Origin: Sphaerochaetaceae bacterium
GTDB taxonomy: Bacteria; Spirochaetota; Spirochaetia; Sphaerochaetales; Sphaerochaetaceae
Assembly: GCA_045616225.1 (NCBI GenBank)
Contig: JAZLGI010000003.1
Span: 749 to 64,748, forward strand
Length of the DNA stretch: 64,000 nt
Direction of reading: 5' to 3'
Below, piece after piece: positions 4,769 to 64,000 of this stretch. The number at the start of each line of letters is the position of its first letter. Position 1 is the stretch's first letter. A program made the translations under genes and the position numbers. Below the pieces are notes generated by a model, which had not been told where the DNA came from, ran no database searches, and saw only the letters and a list, made by a program, of their open reading frames with translations.

Positions 4769-5952
4769 AGAGAACAATAATCTTTTGCTTGATTCTATTT
4801 GTTTTGACAGGTTTGTTTGCCTCGGATTTTTCTTTTAAGCCTGTAAGTATTAATCCTCTTTATGAATCCTACAAAGCAGATTCATGGAATTTTGATACAA
4901 GAGGACAGGTCATTTATCTTTTAGAAGGAAAAGGATTAAACCAAGTTCTTCTTTGCACTAAATATGAAGCAGGACGTGAAAAATATTACCTAAATTGGGA
5001 TGAAGTACAGGAAAGTTCAGAAGAATTTGTAATGGAATTGGCAGATTTCAGAGATGCTTCTGAAGGACTTGAAGAATTATATAGGGTAAAAACCGGTTTT
5101 GGTGCCGGACTTTTAAGATTCCAATACAAAGATTTCCAGATAGAAGGTGCAGTTCAGGGAGCTATTAACCTTATCTTTGATGCTAACGGAGGAACAGACT
5201 GTATTGGTTTTGACGGTATTTATTTTTTGGGTGCAAATGCTAAGTATTCTGATTTCCTAAGTGCAAGATTTGGTTTTCATCACTATTCAAGCCACTACGG
5301 AGATGAAATAGAAGAAGAATTCATGTTGAGAAATGATGAACTCAACAGAAAATATGCAGATAGATTTACCTATAGCAGATATCAAACAGGTTTTGTTTCA
5401 CGGTTGACTCAATATGTCAGGCAAGACAGTATGATAGCCGGAATAACTGTTAAACCATTAAAATGGATTAAACTTTACAGTGAAATAGATTTCCCTCCAA
5501 AGCGTATGAAAAACATAAGGCCATGGGTTTTGATTCCTAACGGAATAACGGCAACAACTTCTGACAGCAAAGCTTCAATGCAAACCCATAATGGCTTCAC
5601 AGAAGGAATTTATGAGACAGAACACGGAGAAAGAAAATATCCTTATTCTGACAAATACAAAGACATTGCCGTTAATCTTGGCATTGAGCTTTCACATGAT
5701 TTCAAAAATGTAGGAACTCTTCTTTTAGCCTATGATTTAAAGCTAAATCAAGAAGGACAAACCATGTATCAGATAGGAGCTTACAAACCGGAAAACAAAT
5801 GGGATATAGAACACAATGTTCTTCTGGCATTCTCATTTGACAACTCTCCTGTTTCTGCTGAAATAATCTACCACAACGGCAGATTTCCTCTTATGAATTA
5901 CTATTGGTATCACTGTTCTTACATATCTTTTGGTTTCTCAATTTCAAACTGA
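4765..5952 (+). CDS. putative outer-membrane protein, paralog B (same family as 2176-3366)
   Basis: 395 aa with signal peptide MKRTIIFCLILFVLTGLFA|SDFSF. Shared motifs with paralog A are HHYSSHYGDEIE, IRPW and YHNGRFPLMNYYWYH. Its start overlaps the LRR gene stop as ATGA. Confidence 0.65.
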   Translation: MKRTIIFCLILFVLTGLFASDFSFKPVSINPLYESYKADSWNFDTRGQVIYLLEGKGLNQVLLCTKYEAGREKYYLNWDEVQESSEEFVMELADFRDASEGLEELYRVKTGFGAGLLRFQYKDFQIEGAVQGAINLIFDANGGTDCIGFDGIYFLGANAKYSDFLSARFGFHHYSSHYGDEIEEEFMLRNDELNRKYADRFTYSRYQTGFVSRLTQYVRQDSMIAGITVKPLKWIKLYSEIDFPPKRMKNIRPWVLIPNGITATTSDSKASMQTHNGFTEGIYETEHGERKYPYSDKYKDIAVNLGIELSHDFKNVGTLLLAYDLKLNQEGQTMYQIGAYKPENKWDIEHNVLLAFSFDNSPVSAEIIYHNGRFPLMNYYWYHCSYISFGFSISN

Positions 5953-7066: not shown

Positions 7067-7660
7067 TCAGAAATCTATTCTTCCTCTCAGAGAACGAGCA
7101 AGAGTACTTGTACTTGCATATTCAAGTTCTCCGCCTATCGGAAGACCTGATGCAAGACGTGAGAGTTTTATCTGAGGATAATCTTTTAAAAGAGTCCTGA
7201 GAAAAGAAGCTGTTATATCACCGGACTCTGTTGGATTTGTAGCAATAATTACTTCTGTAAAACTACCCTCTTTTATTCTTTTCATTAAGGAGTCAAAGGT
7301 TAATTCTTTTGGGGTTACTCCATGTAGAAGGTCAATAGCTCCTCCAAGAACATGAAAAAGCCCGTTATAAGCTCCTGAACTTTGAATTGTAATAACATCC
7401 TGCGGTTGTTCAACAACACATAAAAGACTTCTGTCTCTTGAAACATCTGAACAAACAGGACATGGATCTAATTCTGTAAATGAACCGCAAACAGAACAAA
7501 TTTTTATCTTATCTTTAATCTGTGCAATGTTTTCTGAAAGATATGCATTGAAATCCGGTTTTGCAGATACAAGATAATAGGCAATTCTGTATGCACTTTT
7601 TTTTCCAATTCCCGGAAGCCGTGCAAATGCCTCCGCCAAACGGTCTATAGAATTTGTCAT
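7067..7660 (-). CDS. recR: recombination protein RecR
   Basis: 197 aa. It has the RLPGIGKKSAYRIAYYL helix-hairpin-helix, a C4 zinc finger (CSVCGSF...CPVC), and a Toprim domain. Confidence 0.95.
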   Translation of the reverse strand: MTNSIDRLAEAFARLPGIGKKSAYRIAYYLVSAKPDFNAYLSENIAQIKDKIKICSVCGSFTELDPCPVCSDVSRDRSLLCVVEQPQDVITIQSSGAYNGLFHVLGGAIDLLHGVTPKELTFDSLMKRIKEGSFTEVIIATNPTESGDITASFLRTLLKDYPQIKLSRLASGLPIGGELEYASTSTLARSLRGRIDF

Positions 7661-21762: not shown

Positions 21763-22698
21763 TTAAAATTTTACTTCTTCTTCGTTATCAAAAAGATAAC
21801 CGTTTGGATCTAAAAACTGATAAATTCTTTCCAGTTCATCCGTATTATTAAAAGGAATAACTACTTTACCTTTGTTAAGTTTTCCTTTAATTTCTACTTT
21901 GCATCCACTTGCAGAAAGAAATTTTTCTTCTATTTCCATTATTTCTTCTGTTTTAATCTTCTTTTGCTTAATTAAAACTCTATTCGTATTAATTGCACGT
22001 ATTCCATTATTTAGATTACTTGCCAATTCTTCAGATTGTCTAACAGATAAGCCTTTTGAAATAATTTCAGAATAAAGTATTTCTCTTTCAGCAGGATTTT
22101 CTACACTTAATAAAGCTCTTGCATGCCCACTGGTAAAATCTCCTTTTTCAAGAGAATCAAGCATATTTGGCGCAAGATTCAACAATCTTATACTATTAGC
22201 TATGGCAGGACGGCTTTTACCAACTCTTTTAGCAAGTTCTTCCTGTTTAATTCCGGATTGTGATATAAGGTAACTATAAGCCCTGGCTTCTTCAACAGGA
22301 TTCAAGCTTTCTCTTTGAATATTCTCAATTAAAGAGACTTCCATCCTTTGTAAATCAGAAAATTCTCTGACAATACAAGGTACTTTACTGAGTCCTGCCA
22401 ATTTGGAAGCTCTATATCTTCTTTCGCCTGCAATTATTACATAGCTATTTTCAGAAATTTCTTCCACTAGAAGCGGTTGAATTATTCCTTGTGCAGCTAT
22501 TGATTGAGCCAATTCATTAAGTTTTTCCACATCAAAGACTTTTCGCGGTTGATTAGGGTTAGCTTTAATATTTGAAATGTCAATTTCAATTATTTTTGCA
22601 CCTGTTTCTTTCAATTTTTCTGTTTCAAAATTTGCGAAGGCATCATAATTCCCCATAAGAGATTCAATACCTCTGCCCAGACCTTTCTTAATTGACAC
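21763..22698 (-). CDS. parB: chromosome partitioning protein ParB/Spo0J
   Basis: 311 aa. It shows the N-terminal GLGRGIESL, ParB box [10 protein letters not shown], and an HTH ([22 protein letters not shown]). Confidence 0.92.
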
Positions 22699-23446
22699 GA
22701 TTTATAATCTCCTTAGTAAGTTTTGAATAAGCAACAGCTCCGGGACAATGCTTATCATATATAGTAATAGGAACGCCATGACTTGGAGCTTCACTTAAAG
22801 TAATATTTCTTGGAATTAAGGTATCAAAAACAACACCTTTAAAAAACTGTACTACATCTTCTACTACTTGATTGCAAAGTTTTGAACGCTTAGCATACAT
22901 TGTAAAAGCTATACCCAAAACTTTTAATTCAGGATTAAGATTTCTTCTTACTGCAGTAACCGTTTTCATAAGCATATTCAATCCTTCCATAGCAAAATAT
23001 TCACATTGCATTGGAATTACAACAAATTCAGTCCAAGTTAAAGCATTCATTGTTATTAAATCTAAAGAAGGAGGGCAATCTGCAAGAATGTAATCAAAAT
23101 CTTCTTCCAAAGGTTCTATAGCATTCTTTAAGAAGAATTCTCTTCTTTCTTCATCTACCAATTCAACAGCAAGGCCTGCCATATTAATCCCACCAACCAA
23201 ACAAAAAAGATTTTTTACCGGAGTGGCTTGTATTGAACTTTTATCTGCATTACCTGCAATTAATTCATAAACACCAGGCTTAGTTTTATCAGCAGAAACA
23301 GCACTAGAGAGATTTCCTTGAGCATCAAGATCAAGAAGCAGCACTTTGCTTCCTTTTGAAGCAAGGAATGCACCTACATTAACACAGGTAGTTGTCTTTC
23401 CAACACCACCTTTTTGGTTAATAAAAATAATTTTTTTTGCTTTCAT
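22688..23446 (-). CDS. parA: chromosome partitioning ATPase ParA/Soj
   Basis: 252 aa with deviant Walker A NQKGGVGKTT. It overlaps parB by 11 nt. Confidence 0.92.
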   Translation of the reverse strand: MKAKKIIFINQKGGVGKTTTCVNVGAFLASKGSKVLLLDLDAQGNLSSAVSADKTKPGVYELIAGNADKSSIQATPVKNLFCLVGGINMAGLAVELVDEERREFFLKNAIEPLEEDFDYILADCPPSLDLITMNALTWTEFVVIPMQCEYFAMEGLNMLMKTVTAVRRNLNPELKVLGIAFTMYAKRSKLCNQVVEDVVQFFKGVVFDTLIPRNITLSEAPSHGVPITIYDKHCPGAVAYSKLTKEIINRVN

Positions 23447-23774: not shown

Positions 23775-23796
23775 TGAATGTTTCACGTGAAACATA

Positions 23797-28689: not shown

Positions 28690-30084
28690 TTGGAGTCCAT
28701 GTCAGAAAACAAAGAAGTAAACTACGCAGAATTATGGGTACAGACCCTTTCTCAAATCAAAGATTCTTTATCTGCCACAGAATATGAGTCTTGGTTTTCT
28801 CGACTTAATTTCGGATATGTACAAGAAGACAAAATTGTCCTTAATGTTCCTTCTTTATACTTTAGGGACAGATTCTCGGAAACATATAAAAGACTGATAG
28901 AAAAAACAATTTCCAACCTTTCACATAAAAATTTCAGAGTAGAATTTGAAATCAAGAAATCAACTGAAAAAAAGATATCTGAAGAAAAACCTGCAGAAAC
29001 AGTAAAGACAAAAGAAGAAAAGGAAATAAAGCCAAATACTATCCTTAATCCGGCATACACTTTTGATGCTTTTGTACCTGGTGACAACAGCAACTTCGCT
29101 TATAATGCTGCTTTAGCAATAGCTAAAAATCCAGGATCTACTTTTAATCCTTGTCTCATTTACGGTGGAGTAGGTTTGGGTAAAACCCATTTGATTCAAA
29201 GCATAGGAAACTACATTCTCAATGAAAATCCAAAGGCAAAAGTTCTTTACGTAACAGCAGAGAATTTTACCAACGAATTCATTCAAACATACGCATCTGC
29301 AGAAAACAGACAAAAGTTTAAAAACAAATATAGAAAAGCTTCTGTTCTTCTTGTTGATGATATTCATTTCCTCCAGAAAAAAGAGAGTGTTCAGGAAGAA
29401 TTGTTTAACACATTTAATGACCTCTATGATACGGAAAGACAGCTGGTATTTACCTGTGACAGACCAATTGAAGAGTTAAGGGATATTTCAGAAAGACTTA
29501 AAAGCAGATTTGAGAGAGGTTTGAATATTGATTTGCTTCCGCCTGATTATGAAACAAGAGTTGCAATATTAAACAAGAAATGCATGGATAAAAAGTTTAT
29601 TATAAGCAATGAAGTCATAAATTATATTGCGGAAAACATTTCCAGCAACGTAAGAGCTCTTGAATCTTGTCTTACAAGGCTCATAGCTTACAGTTCTCTT
29701 CTTCATAAGGAAATTACACTGGAAACTGCAAAAGAACAGCTTAAACAGATTATTTTTTCAAATTCAAATGATAATACGGGTATTTCAATAGACCAGATAA
29801 TAAGAGTAGTATCCGGATATTTCAAAGTTTCTCCTTATGACATTAAGGGAAAGGCTAAAAATCAATCTATTGTGTTTCCAAGACAAATTGCAATGTATCT
29901 TTGCAGAACATTAACAGATTATTCTACAACAGAAATAGGTGCCTCCTTTGAAGGAAAAAATCATTCAACAGTAATGTATAATGCTCAAAAAATAGAAAGT
30001 CTTATCAGAACTAACGAGAAAGACATAAATAATATAATTGACAGAATTACAAAACAAATCAAAAGTGAGCTTAAAAATAACTGA
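28690..30084 (+). CDS. dnaA: chromosomal replication initiator DnaA
   Basis: 464 aa from TTG at 28690; the alternative ATG at 28699 is preceded by GGAG. It shows Walker A GGVGLGKTHL and the C-terminal DNA-binding signature PRQIAMYLCRTLTDYSTTEIGASFEGKNHSTVMY. Confidence 0.97.
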   Translation: MESMSENKEVNYAELWVQTLSQIKDSLSATEYESWFSRLNFGYVQEDKIVLNVPSLYFRDRFSETYKRLIEKTISNLSHKNFRVEFEIKKSTEKKISEEKPAETVKTKEEKEIKPNTILNPAYTFDAFVPGDNSNFAYNAALAIAKNPGSTFNPCLIYGGVGLGKTHLIQSIGNYILNENPKAKVLYVTAENFTNEFIQTYASAENRQKFKNKYRKASVLLVDDIHFLQKKESVQEELFNTFNDLYDTERQLVFTCDRPIEELRDISERLKSRFERGLNIDLLPPDYETRVAILNKKCMDKKFIISNEVINYIAENISSNVRALESCLTRLIAYSSLLHKEITLETAKEQLKQIIFSNSNDNTGISIDQIIRVVSGYFKVSPYDIKGKAKNQSIVFPRQIAMYLCRTLTDYSTTEIGASFEGKNHSTVMYNAQKIESLIRTNEKDINNIIDRITKQIKSELKNN

Positions 30085-38560: not shown

Positions 38561-38645
38561 TGGTGTCTTGCTTTTTTCAAATCTAAGTTTCTTTTTCCTT
38601 TTAAATAATAGAATTAGCTTGTTTTTCCTGTTTTTATCAACACAC

Positions 38646-38895
38646 TATTGCACAAGTTATGCACAAGTTGTTGGCAATGGTTTTTTTAACATTAAAGTAC
38701 AAGTGTCTACGTCACAAAAACACTCTTAATTCAGAATTTGTTACCTGCGTTATTAACTCTTTATTTTAAAAGGAATTAAAAATTTTGTTAAGTTAATTTT
38801 TTGTATAAAAATTTATATAACTTTTACAGTAAAAAACATTAGATTTTTACAGATTTATTGATTGTTTGTACTGATTTATGCACAAGTTATACACA
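38646..38895. promoter_or_regulatory. two tandem pairs of DnaA-box-like 9-mers flanking an AT-rich ORF-free spacer (candidate oriC element or DnaA-box cluster)
   Basis: The 9-mers are TATTGCACA 38646-54, TTATGCACA 38657-65, TTATGCACA 38876-84 and TTATACACA 38887-95, all in the same orientation. Three fit TTATNCACA exactly. About 210 bp of very AT-rich DNA lies between the pairs. Confidence 0.4.
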
Positions 38896-61346: not shown

Positions 61347-62699
61347 ATGAACGCTTACATTGAAAGTGTTATCGCTAACGTTAAGGCAAAGCATAAGGAT
61401 GAGCCAGAATTTGTCCAGACAGTAGAAGAAGTTCTTTCTTCACTTTCACCTGTTGTAGATGCACATCCAGAGTATGAGAAGGCAGACCTTCTTAACAGAA
61501 TGTGTGAACCAGAGAGAATGTTCACATTTAGAGTTGTATGGACAGATGATGCAGGAAAGACTCACACAAACATTGGTTATCGCTGCCAGTTCAACGGAGC
61601 CATTGGACCTTATAAGGGTGGTCTTAGATTCCAGCCAAACGTATATCCTGGAATTATTAAGTTCCTCGGTTTTGAGCAGACATTCAAAAACTCACTCACA
61701 GGACTTCCTATGGGTGGTGGAAAAGGTGGTTCAGACTTTGATCCAGCCGGCAAATCAGATGCAGAAGTCATGCGTTTCTGCCAGAGCTATATGACAGCTC
61801 TTTACAGATACATTGGTCCGGATGTAGACGTTCCTGCAGGAGATATGGGTGTTGGCGGAAGAGAAATTGGTTATCTCTATGGTCAGTACCGCAGACTCAA
61901 GGGTGTTTGGGAGAACGGAGTTCTCACAGGTAAGGGATTCAGCTATGGTGGATCACTCATCAGACCTGAAGCAACAGGATACGGAGCAATTTATTATCTT
62001 TGTGAAGTTCTCAAACATGAGAATGACAAGATTGAAGGAAAGAGACTTGCTATCTCCGGTTACGGCAACGTAGGTTGGGGAATCATGAAGAAGGCTATGC
62101 AGCTTGGTGCAAAGGTTACATACTTTGCAGGTCCGGATGGATACATTCATGATCCAGAAGGTGTTACAACAGAAGAGAAGCTCAACTTCATCCTTGAGAT
62201 GAGAGCAAAAGATCCAATGCACTGCAAACCATATGCAGATAAGTTCGGTTGTGAATTTGTTCCTGGTCAGAAGTGCTGGGGCGTAAAGGACGTAGATGTC
62301 TATATGCCTGCTGCAACACAGAATGATGTTAAGATGGAAAGTGCAGAGAAGATTGCTGCCAGTGGCGTAAAGTATTATATAGAAGTTGCTAATATGCCAA
62401 CAACAAATGATGCTCTTAACTTCCTCAGACAGCAGAAGCACATGATTGTTGCTCCTTCAAAGGCTGTAAATGCAGGTGGTGTTGGTGTTTCAGGTCTTGA
62501 AATGTCACAGAACTCAGAGCGTCTTGTTTGGACAGCAGAAGAAGTAGATTCACAGCTTCACAAGATGATGACAAACATCCACAAAGTTTCTGCAGAAGCT
62601 GCTGAGAGATACGGCTTTGGTTATGACCTTGTTGCCGGTGCAAATATTGCAGGCTTCCAGAAGGTTGCAGATGCAATGATGGCTCAGGGTTTGTTCTGA
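61347..62699 (+). CDS. gdhA: NADP-specific glutamate dehydrogenase
   Basis: 450 aa with LPMGGGKGGSDFDP and GYGNVG Rossmann motifs. The sequence is hexameric-GDH-like throughout. Confidence 0.95.
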   Translation: MNAYIESVIANVKAKHKDEPEFVQTVEEVLSSLSPVVDAHPEYEKADLLNRMCEPERMFTFRVVWTDDAGKTHTNIGYRCQFNGAIGPYKGGLRFQPNVYPGIIKFLGFEQTFKNSLTGLPMGGGKGGSDFDPAGKSDAEVMRFCQSYMTALYRYIGPDVDVPAGDMGVGGREIGYLYGQYRRLKGVWENGVLTGKGFSYGGSLIRPEATGYGAIYYLCEVLKHENDKIEGKRLAISGYGNVGWGIMKKAMQLGAKVTYFAGPDGYIHDPEGVTTEEKLNFILEMRAKDPMHCKPYADKFGCEFVPGQKCWGVKDVDVYMPAATQNDVKMESAEKIAASGVKYYIEVANMPTTNDALNFLRQQKHMIVAPSKAVNAGGVGVSGLEMSQNSERLVWTAEEVDSQLHKMMTNIHKVSAEAAERYGFGYDLVAGANIAGFQKVADAMMAQGLF

Positions 62700-62722
62700 T
62701 AATATTATTGCAAAATAAAATT

Positions 62723-62776
62723 AAAGGCTGTAACAAAGTCAGATTTTCTGACTGAATGTTGCAGCCTTATCTTTTT
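62723..62776 (+). terminator. nested-hairpin terminator module (copy 2), downstream of gdhA
   Basis: AAGGCTGTAACA-A-AGTCAGA-TTT-TCTGACT-GAA-TGTTGCAGCCTT is followed by ATCTTTTT. It is homologous to the reverse complement of 15872-15913. Confidence 0.75.
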
Positions 62777-62827: not shown

Positions 62828-63035
62828 AGTGCTTAAATAAGAATATCCTTTGTTTAAGCACTTTTTTTCTGAAGAAAATAGTGCCTTAATTCTGATTTGC
62901 AAAAATAAGGCACTAAAAACCAGGAAATTTAAGTGCTTAAAACTCAAAGAACTCTTTTTAAGCACTTCAGAAGTAAAAATAACAGTGCTTAAAAATGGAA
63001 AGACTAAAAAAAAGTACTCCTCATAAATCCATTTT
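62828..63035. repeat. 4 x 52-bp tandem array in which each unit forms a stem-loop (AGTGCTTAA...TTAAGCACT)
   Basis: AGTGC starts at 62828, 62880, 62932 and 62984, exactly 52 bp apart. The hairpins are 62828-62862 (10 bp), 62879-62915 (10 bp), 62931-62967 (12 bp) and 62984-63018 (7 bp with a G-U pair). Only the stem arms are conserved, and unit 2 carries a compensatory change (GTGCCTTA/TAAGGCAC). Confidence 0.7.
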
Positions 63036-63231
63036 TCTGTCCCGTTTTGGCGTTCCTTGCACGCATTTTAGCTGAACAGATTAAGACCTACCTTTTAAAA
63101 GAACGCTTACACTCATTGCGTTGTAAGTTAGATTGGACCGGTGATTATGATTTTTTTAGACACTAAAGAAGAAGGAAAAAGTATTATAAGAGGTTTAAAA
63201 ATTATATAGAAATGATATTTGTTTTGTAGAG

Positions 63232-63264
63232 GCAAAACACTAAATCTAGTGTTTTGCTTTTTTT
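63232..63264 (+). terminator. strong hairpin plus T-run about 107 nt upstream of nrdJ (terminator/attenuator; its core also resembles an NrdR box)
   Basis: GCAAAACACTA-AATC-TAGTGTTTTGC (11-bp stem) is followed by TTTTTTT. The inner 16-mer ACACTAAATCTAGTGT (63237-63252) matches the palindromic NrdR-box pattern acaCwAtATaTwGtgt at about 14 of 16 positions. Confidence 0.55.
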
Positions 63265-63370
63265 GTATGCCCTACTGGTATTGTTTTTTGGTATTGCTTT
63301 TAATATCGGCTTATGGTAGTCTTGGTAACGGTGGAAATTGCCCACTTTACTATTTTTATTGGAGAGAAAG

Positions 63371-64000
63371 ATGACACACCTTACACCACTTGGAAGAAAA
63401 ATTTTTCTAGATCGTTATGCTGTAAAAGATGTAAAGAAAGAAACTCTTACCGAAGGAGATCTTGTTGTTGCAGTCAGTAATAATGTAACCGGTCAGAGGG
63501 AAATAGGACACGTGCTTTCAATAGATAATGATGATGTAAAAGTTTTGTTGGAAGACGGAAGAGAAATAAAAACAACAAAAGAAGGTGTAGATAAGCCTAT
63601 AGAAGTAGAACCGGAACAGATGTTTGACCGTGTTGCAAAAGGAATTGCAAAACAGGAAAAACCTGAAATAAGAGATAGATGGACAGATGAATTCAGATGG
63701 CTTTTAGATGACTTTAAATTTGTCCCAGGCGGTAGAATTCTCACAGGTGCCGGAACAGACCAGAATCTTACATATTTTAATTGTTATGTAATTCCTTCTC
63801 CAAAAGATTCAAGAAGAGGAATCATAGAGAGCCTTGGAAATATGACTGAGATTATGTCCAGAGGTGGCGGTGTAGGAATGAATCTTAGCTCTTTGAGACC
63901 ACGCTATGCTTATGTCAAAGGTGTTAACGGACGTTCAAGCGGCAGTGTTTCTTGGGGAGGACTTTTTAGTTTTGTTACAGGTCTTATAGAACAGGGAGGT
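63371..64000 (+). CDS. nrdJ: adenosylcobalamin-dependent (class II) ribonucleotide reductase, 5' part running off the window
   Basis: Hand translation from ATG 63371 (GGAGAG at 63361-66) stays open to base 64000. It gives MTHLTPLGRKIFLDRYAVKD...FKFVPGGRILTGAGTDQNLTYFNCYVIPSPKDSRRGIIESLGNMTEIMSRGGGVGMNLSSLRPRYAYVKGVNGRSSGSVSWGGLF, which are the characteristic NrdJ N-terminal blocks. It is absent from the ORF track because there is no stop in the window. Confidence 0.85.
   Translation, partial: MTHLTPLGRKIFLDRYAVKDVKKETLTEGDLVVAVSNNVTGQREIGHVLSIDNDDVKVLLEDGREIKTTKEGVDKPIEVEPEQMFDRVAKGIAKQEKPEIRDRWTDEFRWLLDDFKFVPGGRILTGAGTDQNLTYFNCYVIPSPKDSRRGIIESLGNMTEIMSRGGGVGMNLSSLRPRYAYVKGVNGRSSGSVSWGGLFSFVTGLIEQGG

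Follow-up and report, generated by a model that had tools for sequence, protein, structure and literature searches.

An array of eight half-sites in alternating orientation, set apart by a rigid 17 nt, between gdhA and nrdJ of a Sphaerochaetaceae bacterium

Iterons and centromere arrays, for example sopC of F (12 units of 43 bp that each contain a short inverted repeat), are phased arrays of inverted-repeat cores bound by dimers. They adjoin their cognate gene (rep, sopB or parB) on a mobile replicon and consist mostly of direct or whole-unit tandem repeats. Clusters of repetitive extragenic palindromes (REPs), the bacterial interspersed mosaic elements (BIMEs), can also form RNA hairpins and bind gyrase, IHF and Pol I as DNA (cited in PMC12306157). 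REPs fall into two super-families by a GTAG or CGTC tag, which most of them carry at one end, and are tied to REP-associated tyrosine transposases (RAYTs; PMC3733652), and a terminator role has been proposed for clusters of hairpins behind stop codons (PMC8355165). Here, an array of palindromic units between gdhA and nrdJ was analyzed in a 64,000-nt stretch of a Sphaerochaetaceae bacterium (assembly GCA_045616225.1, contig JAZLGI010000003.1, positions 749 to 64,748 of the forward strand; the whole stretch is referred to as the window, and positions are counted from its first letter). The array works most like a BIME-2 cluster of palindromic units or a phased iteron/centromere array, and membership of neither is supported.

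Architecture and a possible reading of the array

The plus-strand arms of the four units start with AGTGC at 62828, 62880, 62932 and 62984, and their inverted partners run from 62854, 62906, 62958 and 63010 to GCACT-type ends at 62862, 62914, 62966 and 63018 (Table 1), which bears out the exact 52-bp period reported in the initial annotation. Half-sites follow one another at a constant step of 26 bp in strictly alternating orientation. Measured between 9-nt half-sites, the 'loops' within palindromes and the 'linkers' between them are 17 nt long in every case, an exact equality that the initial annotation had under-used and that gives a sharper description of the element, i.e., eight alternating half-sites separated by rigid 17-nt spacers.

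The half-site word is AGTGCTTAA(A), found exactly in five of the eight half-sites; two are the symmetric variants of unit 2 (AGTGCCTTA and TAAGGCACT, with arm positions 6 and 8 altered on both arms), and the right half-site of unit 4, the last of the array, has decayed to AAAAGTACT. The longer words AGTGCTTAAA (three times) and TTTAAGCACTT (twice) recur with all copies identical. Both arms of units 1 and 3 and the left arm of unit 4 are sequence-identical over 10–11 nt, beyond mere complementarity, even though units 1 and 3 lie 104 bp apart. AGTGC and GCACT form the ends, flanked by TTT, AAT, TTA and AAC, and the in-register positions that would come next hold no match on either side, so the array stops at eight. 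Arms match perfectly within units 1–3, and between units only for the right arm of unit 3 and the left arm of unit 4; this difference is all that sets the 'hairpin unit' register apart from the alternative one. Tandem Repeats Finder did not call the array because its repetition is confined to the arms.

Identity between units was 0.76–0.89 in the arms, 0.38 in the loops and 0.31 in the linkers, against 0.29 expected from base composition, in agreement with the earlier observation that only the arms are conserved. Gapped comparison in both orientations revealed no homology among loops and linkers (best p = 0.016 among 72 tests), no motif recurred within the loops, and the internal dyad symmetry of the 17-nt spacers was at chance level (20/56 Watson–Crick positions, p = 0.13); in this respect loops did not exceed linkers. 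Counting both strands, the 64 kb hold five exact copies of the 9-mer, every one within the array; when one mismatch was allowed, 15 matches (10 outside the array) were found against 23.9 ± 4.6 expected, which is no excess over chance. Statistically, the array is unmistakable as a real and non-random feature of one locus in one uncultured lineage.

As RNA, unit 1 folds at −14.3 (+) and −12.1 (−) kcal/mol, unit 2 at −13.8 and −17.5 kcal/mol, its minus-strand hairpin being followed by AUUUUCUU, and unit 3 at −11.1 and −12.0 kcal/mol; the plus-strand T-run reported behind the first hairpin is present. Unit 4 is marginal on the plus strand (−5.5 kcal/mol, z = −1.9) and yields no hairpin on the minus strand. 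As DNA, units 1 and 4 reach −8.3 and −0.4, respectively. Units 1–3 fold clearly better than shuffled controls as RNA (z = −3.5 to −6.0), and they do so as DNA too. Folding energy favors the plus strand in units 1 and 4, the minus strand in unit 2 and neither in unit 3, so that no transcript strand is indicated. Folding of the region as a whole likewise surpasses that of shuffles on the two strands (z = −4.1 and −5.5); since all arms are complementary to one another, its global fold is degenerate, nested or local.

The stems are 10, 10, 12 and 7 bp long as first described, with only Watson–Crick pairs in the core arms of units 1–3 and one G–U pair in the plus-strand stem AGTGCTT/AAGTACT of unit 4; the loops of about 13–17 nt described earlier hold for units 1–3, but that of unit 4 measures 21 nt. 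Covariation is restricted to unit 2, where two pairs are altered on both sides. This compensatory mutation is real as sequence but statistically weak, since it comes from one unit and 67 of 500 column shuffles equal its count. The initial conclusion of selection on structure rather than on sequence is unsupported as stated, given that the arms are sequence-identical and the covariation comes from unit 2, and it is further undercut by a strand preference that is inconsistent in both G–U pairs and folding energy and by loops statistically indistinguishable from linkers.

We tentatively favor a reading of the array as a phased multi-site binding array, in which a putative sequence-specific protein would recognize duplex DNA. 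A multi-site operator was among the initial candidates, and the eight alternating half-sites are now confirmed, the function being putative. The arms are identical across units while the intervening DNA is randomized, and therefore something presumably reads the sequence AGTGCTTAAA. A function in structure only is unlikely because the arms would have drifted by compensatory change, and gene conversion is unlikely because it would have homogenized the spacers too. Bacterial intergenic DNA is assumed to acquire about one indel per 10–20 substitutions. If the units arose by duplication, their saturated spacers would be expected to carry 5–10 indels under neutral decay; they carry none (probability well below 1%), and spacer length is therefore constrained. 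Helical phasing (26 bp = 2.5 turns, 52 bp = 5), rather than RNA hairpins, would explain why linkers are as long as loops. Arm sequence identity together with constant 17-nt spacers is thus what favors phased protein binding, while a functional RNA hairpin is a poor fit because the loops are large (13–21 nt) and unstructured and the strand preference is inconsistent. The position downstream of a strong terminator points the same way, as does the search for a sigma-70-like plus-strand promoter able to transcribe the array, which found none.

Mechanistically, the array would offer four dyad-symmetric 35-bp sites with 10-bp arms AGTGCTTAAA and about 15 bp of free center, the site centers being 52 bp, i.e., five B-DNA turns at 10.4 bp per turn, apart. 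Four bound dimers would share the same rotational setting and could contact one another, giving a nucleoprotein complex of ~200 bp in the otherwise untranscribed spacer from the gdhA terminator to the NrdR-controlled nrdJ promoter. Such a complex would most likely act as a roadblock, an insulator or an upstream regulatory site; the array may also survive from an iteron-, centromere- or res-like array of a mobile element now without genes.

Several observations weigh against such protein binding. The arms of each palindrome lie 26 bp (2.5 turns) apart on opposite helix faces, which is awkward for a compact dimer, and the symmetric double change of unit 2 is more natural under hairpin pairing or template-switch 'correction' of a quasi-palindrome. 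No candidate binding protein was found among the window's open reading frames (ORFs) of at least 150 aa, which are housekeeping or of unknown function, nor a second site for it in the 64 kb, and the closest syntenic relative (L100) has no array though its nrdJ operator is conserved. The strong AA/TT peak at 10.4 bp stems largely from the arms and becomes marginal (p ~ 0.03–0.09) once these are masked, and A-tract curvature was rejected on this ground. We regard as improbable two further arrangements, of which rigid 17-nt spacers of unrelated sequence are likewise the expectation: a novel DNA-binding protein polymerizing along the alternating half-sites as a 'zig-zag' filament, with dyads at the loop and linker centers, or a ruler-spaced repeat–spacer array built by active insertion. 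The filament would serve as a chromosomal insulator or roadblock, parting a strongly expressed gene from a tightly repressed one.

Table 1. Coordinates of the array, its units and the flanking features in the window
Feature	Position	Strand	Description
Whole array	62828..63018	.	8 half-sites, consensus AGTGCTTAAA, alternating orientation; 7 intervening spacers of 17 nt each
Unit 1	62828..62862	.	35-bp palindrome AGTGCTTAAA-N15-TTTAAGCACT, stem 10 bp; terminator-like, T7 next on + strand
Unit 2	62880..62914	.	symmetric variant AGTGCCTTA-N17-TAAGGCACT; 10-bp stem TAGTGCCTTA/TAAGGCACTA
Unit 3	62931..62967	.	AAGTGCTTAAAA-N13-TTTTAAGCACTT, perfect 12-bp arms
Unit 4	62984..63018	.	decayed edge unit; left arm exact AGTGCTTAA, right arm AAAAGTACT with 3 mismatches
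gdhA	61347..62699	+	NADP-glutamate dehydrogenase, 450 aa; PF02812, PF00208; P0001 100% identical
gdhA intrinsic terminator	62724..62776	+	long compound stem, then T-run; −28.7 kcal/mol, z = −5.3
nrdJ control region	63159..63301	+	apart from array; NrdR-box part 63202–63252 conserved with L100
nrdJ, 5' part	63371..64000	+	ribonucleotide reductase, PF00317, PF02867; cut by window end

Relation to described repeat systems

Like the BIME-2 and REP clusters of Escherichia coli and other bacteria, the array is extragenic and sets ~35-bp palindromic units with stem-loops head to tail in one spacer behind a gene. REPs, at about 14–40 nt each, are dispersed in tens to hundreds of copies, with short loops and conserved BIME linkers, whereas the array occupies one locus, and its 17-nt loops and linkers are unrelated in sequence. 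Its ends carry neither the GTAG nor the CGTC tag. Domains were scanned in ~46 window ORFs of at least 150 aa, leaving aside four nested in annotated genes; there was no RAYT/IS200-type transposase among them, and no integrase, Rep, Cas or extra Par domain or other transposase. With no further copy in the 64 kb, a high copy number is unlikely. The initial BIME/REP candidate fails on tag and linkers; no dispersed copy was found for it in the window or in relatives, and no transposase in the window.

With iterons and centromere arrays the element shares short conserved words held in a register of integral helical turns (52/5 = 10.4 bp) and laxer DNA between them. It differs in having housekeeping flanks (parE–parC–rluA–gdhA and nrdJ) without an adjacent rep or par gene or a mobile context within the window, and in half-sites that alternate at 2.5 turns. 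The only par genes in the window are the chromosomal parAB, 39 kb from the array, with a canonical parS.

Tandem terminators of the hairpin-cluster type (PMC8355165) resemble the array in placing several hairpins past a stop codon, and unit 1 has a proper T-tail; in a terminator scan it was the only unit to pass as an intrinsic-terminator-like site with its T7 tail. Unlike such terminators, the array has large loops (13–21 nt), A/T-rich stems and three of four hairpins without a U-tract, with gaps of 17 nt, and termination would not call for the sequence identity of its arms. Nor is it needed for ending gdhA, because the strong terminator of that gene, already recognized in the initial annotation, sits independently upstream.

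Other candidate memberships were rejected. The NrdR box is a 16-bp palindrome, acaCwAtATaTwGtgt, usually paired ~31–32 bp apart at nrd promoters. The array likewise lies upstream of nrdJ, and CACT/AGTG is common to its arms and the box; its words are oriented and spaced otherwise (AGTGC-N25-GCACT or GCACT-N17-AGTGC), such a palindrome is missing, and the true box at 63237–63252 is conserved in L100, which is without the array. CIRCE (controlling inverted repeat of chaperone expression), the HrcA operator, has the consensus TTAGCACTC-N9-GAGTGCTAA upstream of chaperone genes. Half-site TTAAGCACT resembles TTAGCACTC, a likeness judged coincidental given an extra half-site base, a spacer of 17 rather than 9 nt, four units rather than one and no chaperone neighbors. 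CRISPR arrays consist of 24–48 bp direct repeats with unique spacers of similar length, usually beside cas genes; the alternating words of 9–11 nt, the 17-nt spacers and the lack of a cas domain in the window speak against membership. Integron attC sites are imperfect R''/L''...L'/R' palindromes of 55–140 nt with extrahelical bases, RYYYAAC/GTTRRRY cores, a cassette ORF and a nearby intI. The 35-bp perfect-stem units do not conform, GCTTAAA/TTTAAGC lacks the crossover C/G, and the window holds no integrase. A DnaA-box cluster was dismissed because the genome's boxes are the standard TTATNCACA, from which the array word deviates at two specified positions and unit 2 at more; a sigma-54/NtrC-type enhancer, because TGGC-N8-GC at 63047 has the wrong −24/−12 spacing; and hidden coding, because a period of 52 bp is not divisible by 3 and because look-ups of four small spacer ORFs (47, 47, 51 and 58 aa) returned no called gene.

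Distribution and genomic setting

No other copy was detected in the window, either by exact word or by a covariance model with filters off. The search was extended to 185,579 representative genomes (GTDB; the source genome itself is not among them) and to viral contigs, and no array of this architecture was found; the relatives' loci yielded no copy either. The pattern AGTGCTTAA-N17-TTAAGCACT gave 17 single matches in unrelated phyla, most of them ordinary long terminator-like palindromes starting by chance with the array word, and zero matches in viruses. Three loci held several word copies at irregular spacing in unrelated contexts and were judged to owe their detection to the pattern, not to homology: L009 (339–399; groES–groEL spacer of a Peregrinibacteria metagenome-assembled genome, MAG), L011 (3029–3107; Pseudomonadota, upstream of rplY) and L012 (368–466; Chloroflexia). 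In the arms of their intergenic hairpins, (A/G)GTGCTTAA(G) occurs two to four times; the arms of L011 and L012 are alike over ~35 nt and match no Rfam family, a mir-17 match being spurious. As the search pattern selects the array word, a relation of these loci to the array is unproven.

Plasmid and phage records showed no blastn similarity to the array. Looser viral patterns retrieved unrelated hairpins, a dispersed palindrome of giant viruses, an ori-like iteron cluster (L122) and a tandem hairpin array (L151), none with the architecture described here. On viral contig L122 (8992–9250), AAGCACTA/TAGTGCTT, a word related to that of the array, occurs in at least eight copies, arranged as two sets that oppose each other around an (ATT)n tract. 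Prim-Pol/PriCT and VapE-like genes directly precede the copies and a VRR-NUC gene follows, a layout that suggests an iteron-bearing replication origin of a phage or satellite. By analogy only, the opposed sets may be compared with the array as a cluster of protein-binding motifs, the search pattern having selected that motif. On the 122-kb viral contig L151 (600–735), five tandem small hairpins AAAGTGCTTAATYGGCACTTT recur with a period of ~32 bp and variable linkers, and the neighboring ORFs have no Pfam or PHROG match. Giant-virus MAGs (L136–L171, e.g., L162 at 4754 and 7517; GVMAG-M-3300009180-16, IMGVR 3300027763_003431) carry many dispersed copies of the 26-nt palindrome TTAAGCACTCCTAGAGGAGTGCTTAA, which lies inside a longer conserved inverted repeat.

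Rfam gave no match for the array at either threshold, only sub-threshold noise from eukaryotic microRNAs and small nucleolar RNAs; at the gathering threshold the whole window yielded one tRNA. When the literature was searched for the motif, primers and eukaryotic sequences were all that came up.

Among named relatives, the nearest are Spirochaetales or Sphaerochaetaceae MAGs. The closest relatives overall reach 77% identity for nrdJ DNA and 79–80% for ParC protein, and their spacers hold nothing array-like. No motif was present at 80 metagenomic nrdJ loci (at most 85% N-terminal protein identity), where the NrdR box was the sole overlap with the spacer of the window, and the covariance model matched none of 27 related loci. 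Gene order varies around the locus: rluA, an 81-aa ORF and nrdJ in L100; rluA, a different gdh, a PPDK_N gene and nrdJ in L101 and L026; rluA, pgm, an 89%-identical gdhA and nfeD in L102–L105. The array is absent from all of these syntenic loci. It is thus lineage-specific and lies at a synteny breakpoint. Ancestral control of nrdJ or gdhA does not explain it, because L100 lacks the array though its nrdJ operator is conserved. Same-species Logan contigs, reached via exact SDH and RluA proteins, are 1.3–2.1 kb long and end before the array; exact-protein look-ups with GdhA and one RluA start variant returned no record.

Hairpin arrays of other sequence were seen at comparable positions. Behind the terminator of the orthologous gdhA in another Spirochaetales lineage, L102 (5429–5475) has one hairpin and L103–L105 (5429–5515; L105 2293–2380) have two in tandem, with common arms GTTTTCATCAAAA/TTTTGATGAAAC, unrelated loops and a 42-bp period; this unit, of the same architecture as in the window, is present or absent between strains. 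A younger tandem repeat of ~41–46 bp (2.5 copies, hairpin TTATTCTGgaatttCAGAATAA in each unit) lies in the band7–mgtE spacer of L103 (~7090–7200). Compared with L108 and L110, L109 (~5398–5475) carries a 78-bp insertion behind gdhA with two small hairpins and duplicated ACCATA flanks, which looks like a miniature mobile insertion. In related bacteria, as these cases show, hairpin arrays with common arms come into being and turn over at positions of this kind.

The gdhA–nrdJ spacer is 671 bp long, close to the 670 bp first noted as unusual, and the array begins 129 nt past the gdhA stop codon. About 140 bp separate its end from the first nrdJ control word, the half-box GACACTA at 63159, so that the array lies outside the nrdJ operator and upstream of the conserved NrdR-box region. 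The latter (63202–63252) aligns to L100 10056–10105, including the identical NrdR box ACACTAAATCTAGTGT at 63237–63252. The box sits within a palindrome with 11-bp arms followed by a T-run, a 13-nt tandem of TGGTATTGYTTTT (two copies) occupies 63276–63301, and words related to the NrdR box precede nrdJ in several distant loci. A plausible nrdJ promoter candidate, read by eye, consists of TTGCTT (63256–63261), 17 nt and TGgTATTGT ending at 63284. Folding of 63019–63160 was no better than that of shuffles, giving no indication of a structured RNA there.

Upstream, the gene order is parE, parC, rluA, gdhA. The window covers the region around the replication origin in a genome of 36% G+C (parAB, parS, gyrBA, dnaA, dnaN, recF, yidC, jag). 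Genes parB and parA lie at 21763–23446 on the minus strand, a perfect parS ATGTTTCACGTGAAACAT at 23778–23795 and dnaA at 28690–30084; the GC skew changes sign near 28–30 kb, and four DnaA-box-like words (TTATNCACA) cluster at 38634–38895.

The gdhA stretch 61347–62706 shares 87% DNA and 97% protein identity with L001 4000–5360 (sample ERZ1767625) in a different genomic context, from 1 nt before the ATG to 7 nt past the stop codon. GdhA proteins ~87–91% identical occur in MAGs labeled Lachnospiraceae, Oscillospiraceae, Kiritimatiellia and Spirochaetales, which suggests frequent horizontal transfer of gdhA. Co-transfer of the array was rejected, as the L001 similarity ends at that point and other gdhA loci differ downstream.

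Alternative explanations and significance

A somewhat unlikely alternative to a protein-bound DNA array is a single-stranded hairpin cluster, i.e., a lineage-specific REP/BIME-like element, a terminator/insulator cluster or a stabilizer of the gdhA mRNA 3' end, in which unit 1 would stop plus-strand read-through and unit 2 minus-strand transcripts. REPs are themselves short extragenic palindromes that often occur in clusters (PMC12306157, PMC3733652), and the significant folding of three units, the T7 tail of unit 1, the strong minus-strand hairpin of unit 2 followed by AUUUUCUU, the paired changes in unit 2 and the perfect pairing within three units (between units only once) would all suit hairpins. 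The same architecture with strain-variable copy number behind the orthologous gdhA terminator in L102–L105 argues in this direction as well. Against a REP-like family, neither the 64 kb nor the 27 related loci hold a second copy, the tags and an IS200/RAYT-type gene are missing from the window, and the linkers are unconserved; by a Poisson estimate with an assumed genome of ~2.8 Mb, a family of more than ~200 copies would almost surely show in the window, with which a low-copy family is compatible. Terminator function fits poorly with 13–21 nt loops, A/T-rich stems, a T-tail on unit 1 alone and a start 129 nt past the stop codon, behind a strong terminator, and the 17-nt hairpin gaps exceed the <15 nt of the cluster definition (PMC8355165). 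An RNA model also leaves the equal, indel-free loop and linker lengths unexplained.

Unlikely, too, is a non-functional relic left long ago by a local amplification at a synteny breakpoint prone to recombination, with arms kept alike by mutational homogenization through template switching in quasi-palindromes or short-tract conversion between arms. The rluA–nrdJ locus does differ in every lineage examined (gdhA plus array in the window), the array is lineage-specific with a decaying edge unit 4, and quasi-palindrome correction yields symmetric variants like unit 2, which count for a relic. Other gdhA 3' spacers gain and lose hairpin-bearing segments between strains; because of the L102–L105 and L109 cases, both the relic and the hairpin cluster stay in contention. 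Yet conversion of 10-nt arms that spared every adjoining 17-nt spacer is implausible, neutral decay should have left indels where all seven spacers measure 17 nt, and the arms of the distant units 1 and 3 are identical on both sides. We consider it very improbable that the array gives rise to a small structured RNA or to a transcript acting as decoy or sponge, whose repeated stems or A-rich loops and linkers titrate an RNA-binding protein. The fold of the region surpasses shuffles on both strands, loops and linkers of units 2–4 are A-rich on the plus strand (90 A vs 65 T), and a consensus-level minus-strand promoter (63230–63201) points into units 4 to 2 and could read through them. Set against this, Rfam gave no match, the loops, usually the surface of protein contact, are unconserved and without a recurring motif, the global fold is degenerate and the element is not kept in relatives.

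As a feature of a single locus in a single genome, the array is of limited general importance for now, whether it binds protein or forms hairpins. If it is a hairpin cluster, it would be a further case in which only arm sequence and unit length persist. Together with the polymorphic pairs behind gdhA in L102–L105, it suggests a fast turnover of such arrays at gene 3' ends. If, as we tentatively favor, the array is bound by a protein, it would show, in compact and natural form, helical phasing rigidly imposed on DNA that is not conserved and could serve as pull-down bait for a new DNA-binding protein from an uncultured spirochaete lineage.

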